This document shows positions 2,953 to 14,657 of a stretch of DNA of 16,267 nt, one piece after another. The stretch lies in IMG/VR virus record IMGVR_UViG_2778261227_000013, positions 1-16,267 of that record. One strand, 5' to 3'. Under the pieces are notes generated by a model. That model ran no database searches and had not been told where the DNA came from. It saw nothing but the letters and a program-made list of their open reading frames with translations. This DNA is from a virus. Lineage: Duplodnaviria; Heunggongvirae; Uroviricota; Caudoviricetes. How positions within the stretch are numbered: the first letter of the stretch is position 1; every line of letters begins with the position of its first letter. Made by a program: the position numbers and the translations under genes.

Positions 2953-3205
2953 TTGACACTTTCCGGCTTAGGACCTTAACAAATCTTAACATCGCAGGTT
3001 GACACACTTGACACTTTTTCGCGAAAAACCTTATCAAACCTTAGCATTTCTAAGCATGGCAACTTGACACTTTTCGCGATTTTTTCGGCTTTTTGACGTG
3101 GTAAATCTGGCGAAAGGCCAGTAATGGCGCGGCTTACAGCGAGGTTGACACTTTTTCGCGTTCAGAGTGTAAAGTGTCAACCTGGCAAGCTGCTCAACTT
3201 GACAC
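2953..3205. repeat. Array of seven TTGACAC motifs (six direct, one inverted), three extended as TTGACACTTTT(T)CGCG; candidate protein-binding or packaging-recognition array
   Basis: TTGACAC at 2953, 2999, 3008, 3064, 3145 and 3199; inverted GTGTCAA at 3174. A TTGACGTG variant lies at 3093. The array sits immediately downstream of the Nu1/TerS-like HTH gene. Confidence 0.6.
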
Positions 3206-3214
3206 TTTTTGATG

Positions 3215-3742
3215 TCATTGATGGTCTGATTTTTCCCATTCAGCCAGGGCGTTTAGCCCGGCTTCACTCCATGATTCCAGTTCATCGGGACAATCACCTG
3301 CAACATAGCAGAGTTCGCAACGCAGCATACGAATTGCCAGCCTGGCATTACCTCGCAAATTGTATTGTTCAAAGTAATGCTGCCCGTCGCAATCCTCAAG
3401 GCAGATAGCACCATCATCAAGAAAGTGCACTTCCCAGCCTAATTCCCCGGCTGCATCCTGCACACGCTGCTGTATGCCCTCGTCCGTTGCTGGCGCAGGA
3501 ATTTTACCGCCTCTGGCCTTAACTGCTTTCCAGAACTCGCCCCACGTCATTTCCAGCGTTCTCTCTGGCCACATTTCAGAAACTGTGTCTTTTCCCTGTG
3601 CTGGTGGGCTGTTCCGCTGCTCTGTCGCTTCCACATCGATTTTTTTACCGGACATGACCACTTCGCCTTTCTCGATCCAGTCGTAAACTGTCTGGCGGCT
3701 TACGCCTTTGTGTTTGGCATATTCTGCCTTACTCATCAGCAT
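3215..3742 (-). CDS. Nu1/small-terminase-like N-terminal HTH protein (175 aa); possible packaging-redirection (Rpp-like) protein
   Basis: N-terminal SKAEYAKHKGVSRQTVYDWIEKGEV resembles the winged-HTH of lambda Nu1-type small terminase subunits. AAGGGTGAG upstream of the ATG at 3742; 6-nt gap from the upstream gene. Confidence 0.6.
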   Translation of the reverse strand: MLMSKAEYAKHKGVSRQTVYDWIEKGEVVMSGKKIDVEATEQRNSPPAQGKDTVSEMWPERTLEMTWGEFWKAVKARGGKIPAPATDEGIQQRVQDAAGELGWEVHFLDDGAICLEDCDGQHYFEQYNLRGNARLAIRMLRCELCYVAGDCPDELESWSEAGLNALAEWEKSDHQ

Positions 3743-3748
3743 TATGAC

Positions 3749-4420
3749 TCACCCTTCTTTTTCCAGTTGAGCCAGCCGCCCGGATATTTCTTCCAGTTTT
3801 TCCAGGGCTGGCTTGCAGGCCGCATCAATAACGTCCCGGACCATTCCGGCAAGCTGTTCTTCTGCTGTCGGCGTTGTTACTTCCACGCCCGATGGTTTCC
3901 CGCCCTTATCCCAAACACCAAGCGGCACGAGCGCAACGTGATCGATAAGAAATGGCGTACCCTCAATAAAAAAATTGTCCTCGCCCATTACATCAGGAAC
4001 TTCTGCCCCACCTGAGGCACCACAAAACACAACCGACGGACTGGTGGATACCTCCCCTCGGGCTTTCTGGATGTAATCGATGATTTCCTGTCCGTAAATC
4101 CGGCATACGCCCCACACCTCGTCACCGCGAATATACGGCAACATGACGGTGCCAATAATGCGCGACCGTTCGCCCACGTCTTCAAGGGTTTTGCTTTCGG
4201 GATGGTCGATAATGACGGGTACTCCGGCGCAACGTTCCAGGAACTGCGGATTGAGATAAGTTTGCGGTGAACGCCAGACAAATTCTTTTTCTTCGGCGCG
4301 GTAGGCCATTCCGGTTCCTGTGATACGCAGGTTAACCAGCCACATGTTGGAAAACTGATAAGGCGACGGTAGCTGTCCGTCCCGAATCTGCTTCGCCGCC
4401 TCAATTTCTGTTAAAAGCAT
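3749..4420 (-). CDS. Hypothetical protein (223 aa)
   Basis: Long ORF in operon arrangement with the downstream HTH gene. No clear Shine-Dalgarno before the ATG at 4420, so the start is uncertain. An imperfect hairpin lies in the upstream intergenic region. Confidence 0.6.
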   Translation of the reverse strand: MLLTEIEAAKQIRDGQLPSPYQFSNMWLVNLRITGTGMAYRAEEKEFVWRSPQTYLNPQFLERCAGVPVIIDHPESKTLEDVGERSRIIGTVMLPYIRGDEVWGVCRIYGQEIIDYIQKARGEVSTSPSVVFCGASGGAEVPDVMGEDNFFIEGTPFLIDHVALVPLGVWDKGGKPSGVEVTTPTAEEQLAGMVRDVIDAACKPALEKLEEISGRLAQLEKEG

Positions 4421-4484: not shown

Positions 4485-5063
4485 TCATGCCCCCGCGAGG
4501 CTTGCAGTGTTAATTTTGACCAGGCGACGGGGAGGGATTTTGAAAGCACTAAGCCAGTTATTCGGATCCCCCTGATATTCAGTAATCCGCCGTCCGGCTT
4601 CATCCATTCTTACGGTTTTACGCAAATAGCCCGGCGTATTTTCCACAGCCCACTGAACACTGTCTTTTGCAGCCTGGTAAATCTGATCTTCCAGCACCGC
4701 CAGCGTTGCAGAATCTGAAACGGAACGAATATCCACATCACTGAATTTTTTAGCCAGCTTCTGTGCACCAATTAATGCACGCTTGCGGTAATCCATCGAC
4801 TTTTCGCCAGCAAACGGGGCCGGAGCGCGACGCCCCATATTGCTGTATGCGGAATCCGCTTTGGCCTGGGCTTCTGCCAGTGAGGATTCATCTTCGACTG
4901 ACGCGACGATGTTTTGATTAGCGTTATCCTCTTTTATGAAATCCTGTGCGGGGATCGCATTCAGAATTTCGATAATCTCCTGCGGAGTGCTTCCCTGCGA
5001 CTCTGACAGAGCGTTAACCACCTCCATCAGTTTTAATCGCAAATCTTCTTTGCTTGCTGGCAT
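4485..5063 (-). CDS. Hypothetical protein (about 192 aa)
   Basis: The track ORF begins at a GTG at 5072. An ATG at 5063 preceded by GAGAGGTGG is the more likely start (MPASKEDLRLK...). Confidence 0.6.
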   Translation of the reverse strand: MPASKEDLRLKLMEVVNALSESQGSTPQEIIEILNAIPAQDFIKEDNANQNIVASVEDESSLAEAQAKADSAYSNMGRRAPAPFAGEKSMDYRKRALIGAQKLAKKFSDVDIRSVSDSATLAVLEDQIYQAAKDSVQWAVENTPGYLRKTVRMDEAGRRITEYQGDPNNWLSAFKIPPRRLVKINTASLAGA

Positions 5064-5102
5064 TTTTACCACCTCTCTTTTTTCACCAAAAAATCACGAC
5101 CA

Positions 5103-5477: not shown

Positions 5478-5765
5478 TCACTGACTGCAATTTTTCGATC
5501 CAGGGTATTTCCTGAATGCCTTACCATTGGGCTGATGTAATCCCATCCCGGCATGTGCCCGGCTGATGGTTTCGCGCATCTCCCCGAAATTATCCTGCCT
5601 TGCTGGTGGGCGTGCTGCCTTGCGGATACATTCCGCGCGACGTTTTGCCGCCTGTTCCCGTGCCTTGTCATCATTCGCCAGCATGATGACCTCAGCCCAC
5701 CGCGCCGCCGCTCTCCGGTACAGACCACGCGCTTCCAGTGCTTCCGCTTTGCTGTCGTGAATCAT
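5478..5765 (-). CDS. PerC-like small transcriptional regulator (95 aa), tentative
   Basis: Translation MIHDSKAEALEARGLYRRAAARWAEVI... matches my recollection of the PerC-family N-terminal signature. ATGA overlap with the stop of the upstream ProQ/FinO gene. Confidence 0.55.
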   Translation of the reverse strand: MIHDSKAEALEARGLYRRAAARWAEVIMLANDDKAREQAAKRRAECIRKAARPPARQDNFGEMRETISRAHAGMGLHQPNGKAFRKYPGSKNCSQ

Positions 5766-6346
5766 GCGCCTGTTTTCTCCTTTGCTACCCGGCGCTGACG
5801 TTTGCGCTTCTCATTCAGCGCCACCAGCCGCGTTTCTGCGTCCTGTTGTTCCTGTGGTGTCACCTCGCCGCACGGCTGGCCTTTCAGGTCGTAGCGTACC
5901 CCACCAGCCATTAAGGCGCGGTAATAGCGCGGACACTGCGCATAAGATGCCAGCGTCGCACGTAATGCCCCTGGCCCGAATGCCAGCCCCCTGACGGCGA
6001 GATCCTGCATCAGGTCGTCGAATACCCCCACCTTTAGCGGCTTCGGTGCTTCCCGGCTGAATAATTCTGGCCACAACTCAGTGAGGCGGTTAACGCGTCT
6101 GCGGTTTTTTCGCTGCCGTTTGGTCATATGCCGCCACGGTGTCGCCCCTGTGGGCTTCTGCTGCGCTTTCTGGTTACCGGGCATCACTTTATGCGCCGAT
6201 GTGGTTTTATCCTGCTGCTGCTGCTGCGCCGCCTTCGTCGTTTTCTGCGGCGTGCCGTAAATGCCTTTCGGTTTTCTGTTAATGGTCAGCTTAGTCATGC
6301 TTTGCCCCATCGTTTTTACTGATTGTTTCATATCCGGTACTTTCAT
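5762..6346 (-). CDS. ProQ/FinO-domain RNA-binding protein (194 aa; start uncertain)
   Basis: Segment LTELWPELF...PLKVGVFDDL...LRATLASYAQCPRYYRALMAGGVRYDLKGQPCGEVT parallels the ProQ N-terminal FinO domain (PLKIGIFQDL...RVDLDGNPCGEL) as recalled. Basic, Q-rich N-terminus. No good ribbon-binding site before the first ATG. Confidence 0.75.
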   Translation of the reverse strand: MKVPDMKQSVKTMGQSMTKLTINRKPKGIYGTPQKTTKAAQQQQQDKTTSAHKVMPGNQKAQQKPTGATPWRHMTKRQRKNRRRVNRLTELWPELFSREAPKPLKVGVFDDLMQDLAVRGLAFGPGALRATLASYAQCPRYYRALMAGGVRYDLKGQPCGEVTPQEQQDAETRLVALNEKRKRQRRVAKEKTGA

Positions 6347-6351
6347 CTTCT

Positions 6352-6637
6352 GGGTAGAGGGGTAGACGGAGGGTAGATAACAAAAAATAGTCCTCTACCC
6401 ACTTAACTTAATGAAAAAAAACAACTTTCACACATTAGGTAGAGGGGTAGACCGTAAAATAGAAAAGTTTGAAACTTACTTTCTTACAATCTGTGTTTTC
6501 CTCTCGCTGTATAAAAAGTTTTTTGAGCGGGGATGTTGTCTACCCCTCTACCCACTTCTCTGAAAGCCTTGTGCTACGAGGGATTCAGCGGGTAGACAAT
6601 AAAAAATCACCATCTACCCTGTGTCTACCCATCTACC
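6352..6637. repeat. Iteron array GGGTAGA(G/C/T) in direct and inverted copies with A-rich spacers; putative replication origin
   Basis: Direct copies at 6352, 6360, 6371, 6438, 6445 and 6590. Inverted copies at 6393, 6538, 6546, 6612, 6623 and 6631. A-rich spacers between clusters. Located immediately downstream of the primase/helicase gene. Confidence 0.75.
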
Positions 6638-6654
6638 TGTTACGGGTATTACTC

Positions 6655-8403
6655 TTATAAAAATTCCTCGGTTCTCTCCGTTTGTATAACGTTGGTTTGT
6701 ATTCGTCCTTTAAAACCTCTTGTCAGGTATTCAGCCCCATATTCTCTTGCTGCTGACTTCATGGCCTTACCAAAATCACCGACACTTAATATTTCTTCTT
6801 CCCCCATATACTCCATAAAGGCGAGATATAGTCTGTACAGGCTTGTACGCGGATTAAGATCAGTTAATCTCTTACCGCCTCCCATCATCATCCCATGCGG
6901 TTCATCAAGAAATGCAAGCGCCGCACATAACCCAATGACAGGATCAGTTTCCTGTTTTATTTTCAGAGCTTCGGCACCGTCGCGCTGCTCCAACAATAAT
7001 TCCCGTGCTTTTTCTGGATCGGAAAAGTTAGCCAGTAATCGACGAATAATGACAGGTATTTCCGCCGCTATCTTTTGCGGTAACTCTTTATCCTTTTCGG
7101 TCTCCCTTACAATATTATCGAACCGAAAAATTACACGTCGACGCGCAACGCCTCCGGCCCGTTCGGTGAATGTCATCGGCACGTTATTTGTTGCCAGCAC
7201 GACGGACCTGATAATTGTTGTGAAACGCTTTTCATATTTCGGGTTAATTTCAACTGGATCTCCACCCGTTATTTTTTTGATGCCGGATCCTTCACCTGTA
7301 TATTTCGGCTGGTCTGCCAGGACAATAAGACGACTTCCGACAACCTGCGCACGCCCGCCAGCATCATCAAGCGATGTCATTTCAGCGCTTACCGTGTTCT
7401 GTTTCCCTGCCAGAAGGGTGGCTATGTGCGTGATTGTGCTCTTGCCGCTCCCGCCTTCCCCTGTGGCCTCAATAAACATCTGCCAGTCGTACCGGTTCGC
7501 CATAATCATGTACAGCGCGGCGCATATACGCATCATCTTTCGCGGGTCTTTTCCTGCGGCGTGATCAAGCCATTTATGAAAGTTTGGCGCGTTGTCGCGG
7601 ATGTTCTCCCCTGGTACTGGTGGCGTGTACTCAATGCCGTTATGCGTGGTGATCCAGTTATCCGGCGAGTGCGGGGAAAATTCGCCAGTTTTCATGTCAA
7701 GCACGCCATTAGAGAACGGCAATAAATCACCTGACGGTTCCCCCATTGGCCTGGCCATAACTTTTAAAGCATCCACTGCATTACTTATTGCTCTCCGACT
7801 AAACGATGTTCCGTTTTCTTCGTAAATAGCCACCATTTCACGACTAAGATCCAGTGTGCTTACCGGAACCCAAAAATCATCGCGCCAGACGTGGACAACC
7901 TCACTCTCCTGATTCATTGCTACATCCTGAAATCGTTCAGCTAAAAGTTTTGCCCTTTGGCTGTCCGCCATTCTGGAAAGAGATATTTTGTGTTTTTTCT
8001 CGGTCCTTCCTGACAGAATTTCTCCGCGCTCAGCCTGTTCGCGGATCCGTTGCAGGTAGTCGCGCCAGTTCTCCGGTTCCTGGTCGGTGATGCCTTTGTA
8101 TAATTTCGCCTCCTGTACGCCAGCCAGCGCCAGCTTTTCAGCGATAGCATTGATCTGGATTGGCTCGATCTCCCCCGCGAGATAGACACGCGCAAAGCGG
8201 CGTTTCTCGTCAATAATGCGGATATTCGCCAGGTCTGCCAGTTGCTTTGGTCCCAGATAAACAGGTGGCACGTTATCGCAGTGTTTTCGTCCTTCGCTTT
8301 CAATCCAGTGTTGGGCATGGGCGTAAGCATCCGTCCCGGCAAAAATGATTACCTCAGTGAATTTATCCTTCGGCTGATATTTCAAACTCGGTGCGTTTTT
8401 CAC
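6655..8403 (-). CDS. P4-type primase/helicase-like replication protein with D5-like NTPase (582 aa)
   Basis: Walker A GEGGSGKST and Walker B-like LIVLAD within a long ORF, followed directly by the iteron array. Family assignment is from recalled resemblance to phage/plasmid P4-family primase C-terminal regions. Start overlaps the upstream gene by 4 nt. Confidence 0.8.
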   Translation of the reverse strand: MKNAPSLKYQPKDKFTEVIIFAGTDAYAHAQHWIESEGRKHCDNVPPVYLGPKQLADLANIRIIDEKRRFARVYLAGEIEPIQINAIAEKLALAGVQEAKLYKGITDQEPENWRDYLQRIREQAERGEILSGRTEKKHKISLSRMADSQRAKLLAERFQDVAMNQESEVVHVWRDDFWVPVSTLDLSREMVAIYEENGTSFSRRAISNAVDALKVMARPMGEPSGDLLPFSNGVLDMKTGEFSPHSPDNWITTHNGIEYTPPVPGENIRDNAPNFHKWLDHAAGKDPRKMMRICAALYMIMANRYDWQMFIEATGEGGSGKSTITHIATLLAGKQNTVSAEMTSLDDAGGRAQVVGSRLIVLADQPKYTGEGSGIKKITGGDPVEINPKYEKRFTTIIRSVVLATNNVPMTFTERAGGVARRRVIFRFDNIVRETEKDKELPQKIAAEIPVIIRRLLANFSDPEKARELLLEQRDGAEALKIKQETDPVIGLCAALAFLDEPHGMMMGGGKRLTDLNPRTSLYRLYLAFMEYMGEEEILSVGDFGKAMKSAAREYGAEYLTRGFKGRIQTNVIQTERTEEFL

Positions 8404-12091: not shown

Positions 12092-12289
12092 TCAGGTAGC
12101 TGTTCCGCGTGATTCCGCAATACGCTGATTAATCCACTCGTCAATTTCACTCTCAACGAAAGCAATAGCTCGCGAGCCAATTTTAACTGATGCAGGAAAT
12201 TTACCTTGCCCCATAAGGCGATAAATCCATGCCTTGCTATATCCAGTTCTACGCTGAACTTCTGTTAAACGAATAAGCGTATTTGACAT
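12092..12289 (-). CDS. alpA: AlpA-family phage transcriptional regulator (65 aa)
   Basis: MSNTLIRLTEVQRRTGYSKAWIYRLMGQGKFPASVKIGSRAIAFVESEIDEWI matches the AlpA/MerR-like HTH family signature (YRL...GKFP..K.G.RA.A..ESE...WI). GAGGT upstream of the ATG at 12289. Confidence 0.85.
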   Translation of the reverse strand: MSNTLIRLTEVQRRTGYSKAWIYRLMGQGKFPASVKIGSRAIAFVESEIDEWINQRIAESRGTAT

Positions 12290-12358: not shown

Positions 12359-12502
12359 ACCCTCAGGCCTAATGGTTACCGGAAGGAAATTAACCCTAAG
12401 GGTGATGGTAATCGGGAGGAAATCTACCCTAAGGGTGATGGTAAAATTGACGGGGAAGATAAAAAAATACCCTCAGGGTAACAGTAAATCATCCTCAGGG
12501 TA
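12359..12502. promoter_or_regulatory. Upstream region of alpA with five ACCCT(A/C)AGGG palindromic boxes, including a 31-bp tandem duplication
   Basis: Boxes at 12359, 12393, 12426, 12469 and 12492. Copies at 12381-12411 and 12414-12444 are near-identical (GGA[A/G]GGAAAT[T/C][A/T]ACCCTAAGGGTGATGGTAA). Confidence 0.55.
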
Positions 12503-13442: not shown

Positions 13443-14657
13443 TCATCCACATTTTCCGAACTTGCCATGCACCACGTTACCGCCATGTTCGAGCGAATCC
13501 ATATAGTCGGCGTACCACTGGAGCATCTCGCGCCGCCCGTCCAGATATTGCGCATGATTGTACGTGCCACGAATTGAGTTCTTATCAACGTGTGCAAGCT
13601 GCGTTTCTATCCACGCGGTGTTATAGCCCTGCTCATGTAAAATCGTGCTCATGGTGTGCCGGAATCCATGACCAGTAACCTTTCCGTTATAGCCGATGCG
13701 TTTAAATACTTGGTTTATGCTAGCCTCGCTCATTGTTTTCCTTGGATCATTACGGCCGGGAAACATAAGCGGATAATTACCAGTTAATTCTTTAATCTGC
13801 CCAATAAGAGAAAGAGCCTGCTTAGACAAAGGCACCACATGAGGGCGACGCATTTTCATCCGTGAAGCAGGTATCTCCCAGATAGCCTTGTTGAGATCGA
13901 TTTCATCCCATAATGCACCGCGCAGTTCGCCAGTTCGCAAACCAGTGATAATCAGTAGACGAGCCGCCATAACAACCAATGCACTTCCTGAGTAACTGGA
14001 CAATGCCTTGAAAAAATCAGGCAATTCTTTGGCTGTGAGGAAAGGATAATGATTAGATTCATGGCCTTGCATCGCGCTAGTAAGATCTGGGGCAGGGTTA
14101 TACTCTGCGCGACCAGTGACTATTGCATAGCGGAAAACTTCCCCGCACCGCTGCCTCACTTTTTTGGCTTTTTCTGTAGCACCGCGCCCCTCGATGCGTC
14201 GCAGCACATTCAGAAGTTCAAGTGGTTTGATTTCGGCAATTGGTTTTTTGCCAATGTAAGGGAACACATCTTTGTTGAAGGCTTCGAGGATATCTGAAGC
14301 ATAACCAGCAGACCATTTTTTTAATTTGCTGCTGTGCCACTCAAGGGCAATATCTTTGAAGGTATTGTTTAACTGCGTTTCCCGGGCAATCTTTTCCTCT
14401 CGTTTCGCTTCCATCGGATCGATACCCCCAGCGATACCCCTTTTAGCTTCTTCACGTTTTGCACGAGCATCAGCCAAGGTAACTTCAGGATACACACCTA
14501 GTGCTAACAGCTTCTCTTTACCAGCTACACGATATTTAAAGCGCCAGTATTTTCCTCCACTAGGTTTTACCAGGAGATACAGACCACCACCATCAGCCAG
14601 CTTGTAAGCCTTCTCTTTTGGCTTGGCAGTGTCTATTTGACGGGCATTGAGTTTCAC
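13443..14657 (-). CDS. int: Tyrosine recombinase / phage integrase (P4-type, with N-terminal arm-binding domain), 404 aa
   Basis: N-terminus AKPKEKAYKLADGGGLYLLVKPSGGKYWRFKY is typical of P4-like integrases. C-terminal catalytic region contains HGFRHT and a terminal Y (GTYNHAQY). GTG start at 14657 with GGAGGT upstream. Directly adjacent to the tRNA 3' end. Confidence 0.93.
   Translation of the reverse strand: MKLNARQIDTAKPKEKAYKLADGGGLYLLVKPSGGKYWRFKYRVAGKEKLLALGVYPEVTLADARAKREEAKRGIAGGIDPMEAKREEKIARETQLNNTFKDIALEWHSSKLKKWSAGYASDILEAFNKDVFPYIGKKPIAEIKPLELLNVLRRIEGRGATEKAKKVRQRCGEVFRYAIVTGRAEYNPAPDLTSAMQGHESNHYPFLTAKELPDFFKALSSYSGSALVVMAARLLIITGLRTGELRGALWDEIDLNKAIWEIPASRMKMRRPHVVPLSKQALSLIGQIKELTGNYPLMFPGRNDPRKTMSEASINQVFKRIGYNGKVTGHGFRHTMSTILHEQGYNTAWIETQLAHVDKNSIRGTYNHAQYLDGRREMLQWYADYMDSLEHGGNVVHGKFGKCG

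Follow-up and report, generated by a model that had tools for sequence, protein, structure and literature searches.

The 16,267-bp stretch of viral DNA analyzed here (hereafter the window) contains a 356-bp gap between two minus-strand genes in which a short sequence is repeated in both orientations, and this raises the question of what the array (6352–6637) is for. An initial annotation proposed it as a candidate replication origin. On the basis of sequence comparison, it is very probably the origin of vegetative replication in a PICI-type phage-satellite island of about 14 kb, which is located at tRNA-Thr next to proA. The island is inserted at tRNA-Thr(CGT), and all of its genes are on the minus strand. 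In that direction, a tyrosine integrase gene (13443–14657) is followed by a small helix-turn-helix (AlpA-like) gene (12092–12289), an AntA-family gene, Icd-like and DUF4222 genes, a 582-aa gene (6655–8403), and the array. Directly after the array come a ProQ/FinO-family RNA-chaperone gene (5762–6298 with the RefSeq start; Pfam E = 7e-23) and a PerC-family regulator gene (5478–5765), followed by DUF2213 and small-terminase-like genes and low-GC accessory genes, all on the same strand. An int-alpA RNA motif (Rfam RF02996; 13331–13398, minus strand) was detected between the integrase and the next gene with 45.5 bits, which is above the gathering score. Judged from the genes alone, the island possesses the features expected of a Gram-negative PICI, namely an integrase, an AlpA-type regulator, a one-direction operon containing rep-ori, and a specific att site. 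An almost identical island is carried by E. coli TUM9757. Of 5426 complete E. coli genomes, 10 carry this origin variant, and 868 contain DNA similar to part of a 2.8-kb query, mostly to the initiator gene. The island is not listed in Table S1 of the 2018 PICI catalogue (PMC6092414), and the coordinates given below fix the replication module of this uncatalogued, tRNA-Thr-integrated E. coli satellite exactly.

The initial annotation counted at least twelve copies of GGGTAGA(G/C/T) in the array. This number holds for the common core hexamer GGTAGA, of which exactly 12 copies occur in 6353–6637 and three more are scattered in the rest of the window, while only 10 have the longer form GGGTAGA, because two hexamers have A in place of the leading G (6437 and 6631). 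The heptamer GGGTAGA occurs 11 times in the whole window against an expectation of 0.88, with 10 of the 11 copies inside 6352–6630, and none of 200 shuffles gave 11. When the window was simulated 200 times with a first-order Markov model, the hexamer reached at most 3 copies in 300 bp, against the 12 observed. Allowing one mismatch in GGTAGA gave no extra copies in the intergenic gap, and no second GGTAGA cluster was detected in the whole island, including its left end in locus L001. The copies are arranged in the orientation order +++-++ / --+---, so that direct and inverted copies do lie within about 290 bp as first described, and the A-rich stretches reported between them were located as A6 (6383–6388), A8 (6414–6421), and A6 (6600–6605) runs. 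The placement immediately downstream of the 582-aa gene was also verified, as 17 nt separate the stop codon of this gene (6655–6657) from the nearest iteron end (6637).

When the copies are paired from the outside inward, all six pairs have the same dyad centre at 6495.0. This indicates that the array consists of two mirror-image hexads at base-pair precision. The start-to-start spacings of a half-array are 8, 46, 20, 11, and 8. The array is built from a tandem pair spaced 8 bp and an inverted pair spaced 22 bp with an A6 run between its members, and the distance at which pairs recur is 85 bp. The first hexad, unit A (6352–6451), contains a triple on the plus strand (6353–6358, 6361–6366, and 6372–6377), an inverted single on the minus strand (6394–6399), an inner spacer of about 75–80% AT that holds the A8 run (6400–6437), and a pair on the plus strand (6438–6443, preceded by A, not G, and 6446–6451). 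A central spacer of 65% AT (6452–6538) separates the hexads and carries a conserved motif, CAAAAAACTTTTTATAC in the minus-strand reading. The iteron part of unit B (6539–6637) contains a pair on the minus strand (6539–6544 and 6547–6552), a GC-rich spacer with an imperfect palindrome CTGAAAGCC...GGGATTCAG (6553–6590), an inverted single on the plus strand (6591–6596), and a triple on the minus strand (6613–6618, 6624–6629, and 6632–6637, the last with A, not G, before the core). For alignment, unit B was taken as 6454–6640, which includes the central spacer. The enrichment of the 12 hexamers and their exact dyad symmetry together argue for the origin reading.

The 582-aa protein, which we term the initiator, is of the Pri-Rep or alpha-like type, with D5_N, an SF3 helicase P-loop, and a C-terminal origin-binding domain. 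Pfam assigned D5_N to aa 151–281 and the SF3-helicase P-loop family DUF5906 to aa 314–420. The protein shares 70% identity with EcCICFT073 Pri-Rep, and its residues 142–578 share 41% with residues 327–763 of the P4 alpha protein, the portion that holds the helicase and the origin-binding domain. For the helicase core, a match to SaPI5 PriRep (PDB 7OLA, E = 2e-13) was obtained, and the last 100 residues match the solved origin-binding winged-helix domain of P4 alpha (PDB 1KA8, E = 5e-10). The C-terminal winged-helix domain homologous to 1KA8 (aa 486–576; 6676–6948, minus strand) is presumably the reader of the iterons. At the other end, a portable 125-aa domain with a TOPRIM-like fold (8029–8403, minus strand) occupies the place of the P4 alpha primase. 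The initial annotation called this gene a primase/helicase gene. By homology it indeed encodes a helicase and origin-binding initiator, but the name primase is not supported by its sequence, since the P4 alpha primase region (aa 1–326) has no counterpart in it and neither a conserved catalytic Glu nor a DxD was found in the TOPRIM-like domain; this absence was counted against the origin reading.

The origin of Gram-negative PICIs has been placed immediately 3' of rep, with two sets of iterons that flank AT-rich DNA, an organization described as unique to PICIs (Fillol-Salom et al. 2018, PMC6092414). In the same study, a pri-ori fragment of EcCICFT073 replicated a temperature-sensitive plasmid, and its Δpri (Δrep) version gave no colonies. 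The Δori version gave significantly fewer colonies, yet they were not abolished, which we counted against the origin reading (PMC6092414). The array of the window agrees with the PICI origins in position, composition, and architecture, and it lies 17 nt past the stop codon of an initiator related to that of EcCICFT073, whose pri-ori replicates a plasmid; the proposal of a candidate origin is strengthened accordingly. EcCICFT073, which is now classed with the capsid-forming PICIs, has the same GGTAGA iteron in a dyad-symmetric array immediately 3' of rep, and shares the upstream context of Icd-like and DUF4222 genes before rep. From its rep stop codon, unit A reads as a pair, an AT-rich spacer, an inverted single, and a triple, and is followed by unit B with a triple (one copy degenerate), an inverted single, a GC-rich spacer, a pair, and a CAAAACTTTTTA tail. 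The motif CAAAAAACTTTTTATAC of the central spacer also ends unit B of EcCICFT073. Between the window and EcCICFT073, unit A is 76% identical (z = 13.8) and unit B is 75% identical (z = 9.8), whereas alignments of A against B gave z values of only 3–4.5. The same hexamer and these homologous units are further support for the origin reading.

The two islands differ in how the units are joined. The order after the rep stop codon is B-A in the window and A-B in EcCICFT073, and as a result inward-facing pairs stand across an 86-bp spacer in the former, whereas triples abut in the latter. The array is 286 bp long in the window versus about 220 bp in EcCICFT073. Furthermore, the window island is integrated at tRNA-Thr/proA and EcCICFT073 at ycfD-phoQ, with integrases of different types; the downstream genes are ProQ/FinO and PerC in the former and a hypothetical gene and SSB in the latter; and a capsid is encoded by EcCICFT073 but not by the window island. 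Among the relatives, loci L158 and L163 have a complete 12-copy A-B version, and L161 has the B-A order with a different iteron, showing that both unit orders are recurrent variants of one design. This kind of origin has already been described and tested in a close relative, and the window has a unit-order variant of it; the array does not overturn current understanding.

A comparison with satellite phage P4 brings out the structure of each half. According to the GenBank annotation, the P4 ori contains six type-1 repeats, TGTTCACC, in the order pair, AT-rich spacer, inverted single, and triple, whose spacings of 10, 43, 22, 11, and 10 lie within 3 bp of those of the half-array. The counterpart of the unit-A inner spacer is thus the AT-rich spacer inside the P4 ori. 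The iteron 8-mer of the window, TGTCTACC, is identical to TGTTCACC at 6 of 8 positions, and in both, the inverted iteron is preceded by a motif TAAGTTAA. The two halves of the PICI origin thus both look like P4-ori-like hexads, a statement that we did not find in the literature examined. The order and orientation of the P4 ori hexad, together with the 1KA8 and 7OLA matches, argue for the origin reading. P4 differs in that it has one hexad at ori and a separate crr element 4.5 kb away, directly after alpha, whereas the window has two hexads fused in mirror symmetry. In addition, P4 alpha has an N-terminal zinc-finger/TOPRIM primase with an EGYATA-type motif (aa 1–326), which is absent from the initiator of the window, and none of the P4 genes psu, sid, and delta was seen among the window proteins scanned. 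The features that make a P4 replicon, an N-terminal primase and a split ori with a distant crr carrying TGTTCACC iterons, are hence not those of the window.

The position of crr in P4 raises the alternative that the array is a cis-acting replication enhancer, which binds the initiator while synthesis starts elsewhere. The block directly after alpha is crr in P4, with ori 4.5 kb away (GenBank annotation), and this was also counted against the origin reading. The half-array has the geometry of the P4 ori hexad and not that of the crr repeats, whose pattern is ++ -- +. Moreover, the EcCICFT073 rep with its adjacent array alone was enough for plasmid replication (PMC6092414), and a role as crr only is disfavoured by the single GGTAGA cluster in the island, including the left end in L001. 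We therefore regard the enhancer as improbable, and the same single cluster, together with the SaPI precedent described next, is in line with the origin reading.

In SaPIs, 6–12 penta- or hexanucleotide iterons lie directly after rep around an AT-rich centre, with the two sides oppositely oriented, and the Reps load themselves as SF3 hexamers and recognize the iterons with a C-terminal winged-helix domain (Qiao et al. 2022, PMC9371898). The window shares with SaPIs this iteron layout and an SF3 initiator with a C-terminal winged-helix domain, and the helicase cores are detectably homologous (7OLA). SaPIs differ in their distant sequence, their other iteron sequences, a recognizable primase (separate or fused), and their host lineage; they also have divergent regulators, whereas the window island is transcribed in one direction. 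The array thus displays the PICI/SaPI layout of 6–12 iterons of 5–8 bp, at least two per side and with the sides opposed, placed 3' of rep and flanking an AT-rich region, and by homology the initiator is the corresponding SF3 helicase with a C-terminal winged-helix iteron-binding domain.

Iteron plasmids such as pSC101, R6K, RK2, F, and P1 have iterons of 17–22 bp, mostly as direct repeats, and their Reps are monomeric proteins that carry paired winged-helix domains and rely on DnaA and on DnaB loading. As in the window, repeated initiator sites adjoin the initiator gene and AT-rich DNA in these plasmids. Unlike them, the window has iterons of 6–8 bp in both orientations and no DnaA box, and its initiator is itself a helicase. 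The array consequently lacks the traits of a classical plasmid origin, having hexamers in both orientations, no DnaA box, and an initiator with a helicase domain. The initial annotation took iterons next to the initiator gene as the layout of satellite and plasmid origins; the layout of the array is of the PICI, SaPI, and P4 type, with 6–8-bp iterons in both orientations, and not of the classical plasmid type with 17–22-bp direct repeats and DnaA boxes. The origins of SV40 large T antigen and papillomavirus E1 also contain short, dyad-arranged sites of the pentamer or hexamer type, which are thought to nucleate two head-to-head SF3 hexamers. Their origin-binding domain differs in fold and position from that of the window initiator, and the comparison is an analogy alone.

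In all 86 fetched loci with a gene for a related initiator, 6–12 copies of GGTAGA follow the stop codon within 420 nt. The closest divergent orthologues have 94% identity in the initiator and only 75% in the origin. Six origins were aligned, in which the iteron positions are preserved and the variable columns are 4 of 72 in the hexamer cores versus 123 of 268 elsewhere (Fisher p = 8e-12). This pattern suggests that the iteron cores are under selection while the spacers diverge, and the retention of GGTAGA after the stop codon, with cores conserved and spacers not, again supports the origin reading. The same p value, together with the 12 copies where simulation gave no more than 3 in 300 bp, the 0 of 200 shuffles, and the exact dyad symmetry, refutes a chance or low-complexity cluster without function, whose probability is negligible.

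Relatives, whose diversity was widened with IMG/VR loci, differ from the window to varying degrees in the three initiator domains, and these natural domain swaps bear on which of the domains the iteron type follows. L004 is similar throughout (93% identity in the N-domain, 94% in the helicase, and 90% in the winged helix) and has GGTAGA. The same iteron is found in L005, i.e., EcCICFT073 (46%, 91%, and 55%, in the same order), in L158, a 792-aa protein with no counterpart of the N-domain (68% in the helicase and 56% in the winged helix), and in L163, which has a P4-like zinc-finger/TOPRIM primase at its N-terminus (73% and 60%). In contrast, L161 retains the N-domain (96%) and has 73% identity in the helicase and 39% in the winged helix, and its iteron is GGTGAA of the P4 type; L166 (47%, 67%, and 38%) has GGTATA, and P4 alpha, with its P4 primase (52% in the helicase and 35% in the winged helix), has GGTGAA. 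A winged helix with at least 55% identity hence goes with GGTAGA, whatever the N-terminus. L006 is an exception, which we counted against the origin reading, as the GGTAGA core is kept with other flanks, TTGGTAGACAG, at only 35% identity in the winged helix (94% in the N-domain and 53% in the helicase). As a tendency and not as a code, therefore, the iteron type appears to go with the winged-helix domain and not with the other domains. Likewise, the family motif can be written as TGT-NN-ACC, of which the middle dinucleotide (CT, TC, or AT) tends to change along with the C-terminal domain. That the iteron type tracks the winged helix through natural domain swaps is what is expected if the array is the origin. 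Such results suggest how co-resident satellites diversify in initiator specificity and origin incompatibility. Two further IMG/VR loci, L164 and L165, encode initiators of 781–801 aa with a winged helix of the L166 subfamily, and no repeated short motif was found within 450 nt after their stop codons; their origin may lie elsewhere, as in P4.

The link to the winged helix bears on another explanation, in which the repeats are a pac- or cosB-like packaging site for a small-terminase-like protein. Terminase small subunits do bind repeated short sites, and the island encodes a 175-aa protein with a weakly TerS-like N-terminus (PHROG 57). The array, however, travels with the initiator among different packaging modules, e.g., that of the capsid-encoding EcCICFT073, its iteron type follows the initiator winged-helix domain, and a different repeat, three copies of TTGACACTTTTTCGCG, adjoins the TerS-like gene. 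A packaging site is accordingly highly improbable. In the neighbourhood of that gene (3215–3742, minus strand), the TTGACACTTTTTCGCG copies lie just downstream at 3008–3023, 3145–3160, and 3199–3214, two exact and one with 3 mismatches against an expectation of 0.22, and are, separately from the origin iterons, a candidate site for packaging or regulation.

The gap was also scanned for other signals. Neither a DnaA box, nor an IHF consensus, nor GATC was found in 6281–6680, and the scan of 6150–6800 revealed no sigma-70-like promoter and no minus-strand terminator-like site; it gave two terminator-like hairpins, both on the plus strand and at chance level. No RNA family of Rfam was detected in the region, either at gathering thresholds over the whole window or at E ≤ 1 over 6200–6750. 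A distant blastn search of the array against 50,697 phage genomes gave no match, and a full-text literature search for GGTAGA or TCTACC as an iteron returned no relevant paper. These scans bear on the possibility that the repeats are operator or copy-control sites only, which would let the initiator regulate itself, act as a roadblock to transcription, or control the ProQ/FinO and PerC genes. Such a role is suggested by plasmid iterons, which double as control elements, and by the location of the array between two co-oriented genes. The absence of a sigma-70-like promoter and of a minus-strand terminator-like site in 6150–6800 speaks against it, as does the fact that the array follows the initiator whatever is downstream, i.e., ProQ/FinO in the window, a hypothetical gene and SSB in EcCICFT073, and a RepA-helicase remnant in L004. 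We thus consider control sites alone very unlikely, although the array could have a control role alongside origin function.

The GC-rich spacer of unit B has a conserved CTGAA(A/T)(G/C)CC motif (6553–6590 of the window, 5220–5250 of L004, and about 7176–7215 of L005). The motif forms a palindrome in window-type origins, which is perfect with 12-bp arms in L004, has one two-sided change in L011, and is degenerate in the window; EcCICFT073-type origins keep CTGAAAGCCGCGCCATTACTG in its place. It could be a host-factor or priming site. A terminator was considered and rejected, since the palindrome is not followed by a T-tract and EcCICFT073-type origins have not kept it.

With the array read as the origin, replication could proceed as follows. 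Upon induction, the minus-strand operon would be expressed, including the 582-aa alpha-like initiator, whose C-terminal winged-helix domains would dock on GGTAGA in its 8-mer context TGTCTACC. The six sites on each side of the dyad would then recruit and orient the SF3 helicase, plausibly as one hexamer per hexad in a head-to-head arrangement; the 6+6 count and the precedents of SaPI and SV40 type suggest this stoichiometry. AT-rich DNA in or beside the hexads would be melted, at 6400–6437 and/or 6454–6494, and the self-loaded helicases would lead to bidirectional theta replication with the host replisome. What is inferred in this scheme is the binding, the number of hexamers, where the DNA melts, and where the primers come from. 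The least stable 30–40 bp of the intergenic region were located at 6454–6494 in the central spacer, and the second least stable segment at 6401–6442, i.e., in the unit-A spacer. These AT-rich segments are moderately unstable (z of about 2), and the window has less stable DNA elsewhere, which we counted against the origin reading. The unit-A spacer (6400–6437) would be the preferred melting site, since no other AT-rich stretch lies between iterons in both unit orders and also in P4, with 6454–6494 as the alternative.

A broader and rather doubtful proposal is that the origin consists of two permutable P4-ori-like hexads with six winged-helix docking sites each, one for every subunit of an SF3 hexamer, so that the 6+6 array would template a head-to-head double hexamer. 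The ori/crr split of P4 and the A-B and B-A orders would then be alternative assembly solutions, and the initiator would have lost its primase and depend on host DnaG or on the TOPRIM-like domain as a non-catalytic adaptor. If the double-hexamer reading is true, the array would be a bacterial counterpart of the SV40 or papillomavirus origins. The 6+6 dyad, the units in either order, the P4-ori-like hexad, and the iteron type following the winged helix may be of interest for satellite replication.

Several further features of the island were observed. A tandem 33-nt repeat, ATGGTAACCGGAAGGAAATCAACCCTAAGGGTG, is present at 12372–12444 (2.2 copies, 87% match), upstream of the helix-turn-helix gene at 12092–12289; one of the three stray GGTAGA copies falls inside it, and it is possibly a regulatory or operator region of the island operon. 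Two adjacent minus-strand genes encode a 223-aa protein (3749–4420) and a 195-aa protein (4485–5072) that match different parts of the 545-position phrog_6216, the former also matching DUF2213 and, weakly, a head-maturation protease; the two resemble a capsid-interference or morphogenesis gene that is split or modular. At the far end of the island, a low-GC pair of minus-strand genes (1–2420) encodes a 229-aa protein and a 576-aa P-loop ATPase that ends in a C-terminal zinc ribbon. In NCBIfam, the ATPase gave weak matches to the anti-phage protein DS41_1 and the Sll1717 ATPase family, the 229-aa protein had no NCBIfam match, and PADLOC identified neither of them; the pair may be uncharacterized defence cargo. 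In E. coli cq9, a truncated pseudogene of the helicase RepA family (L004, 4596–5003) lies between the origin and the ProQ/FinO gene, and its first codons, ATGAAAGTACCGGATA, are also present at 6331–6346 of the window. This recurrence suggests that the distal edge of the origin is a recombination junction.
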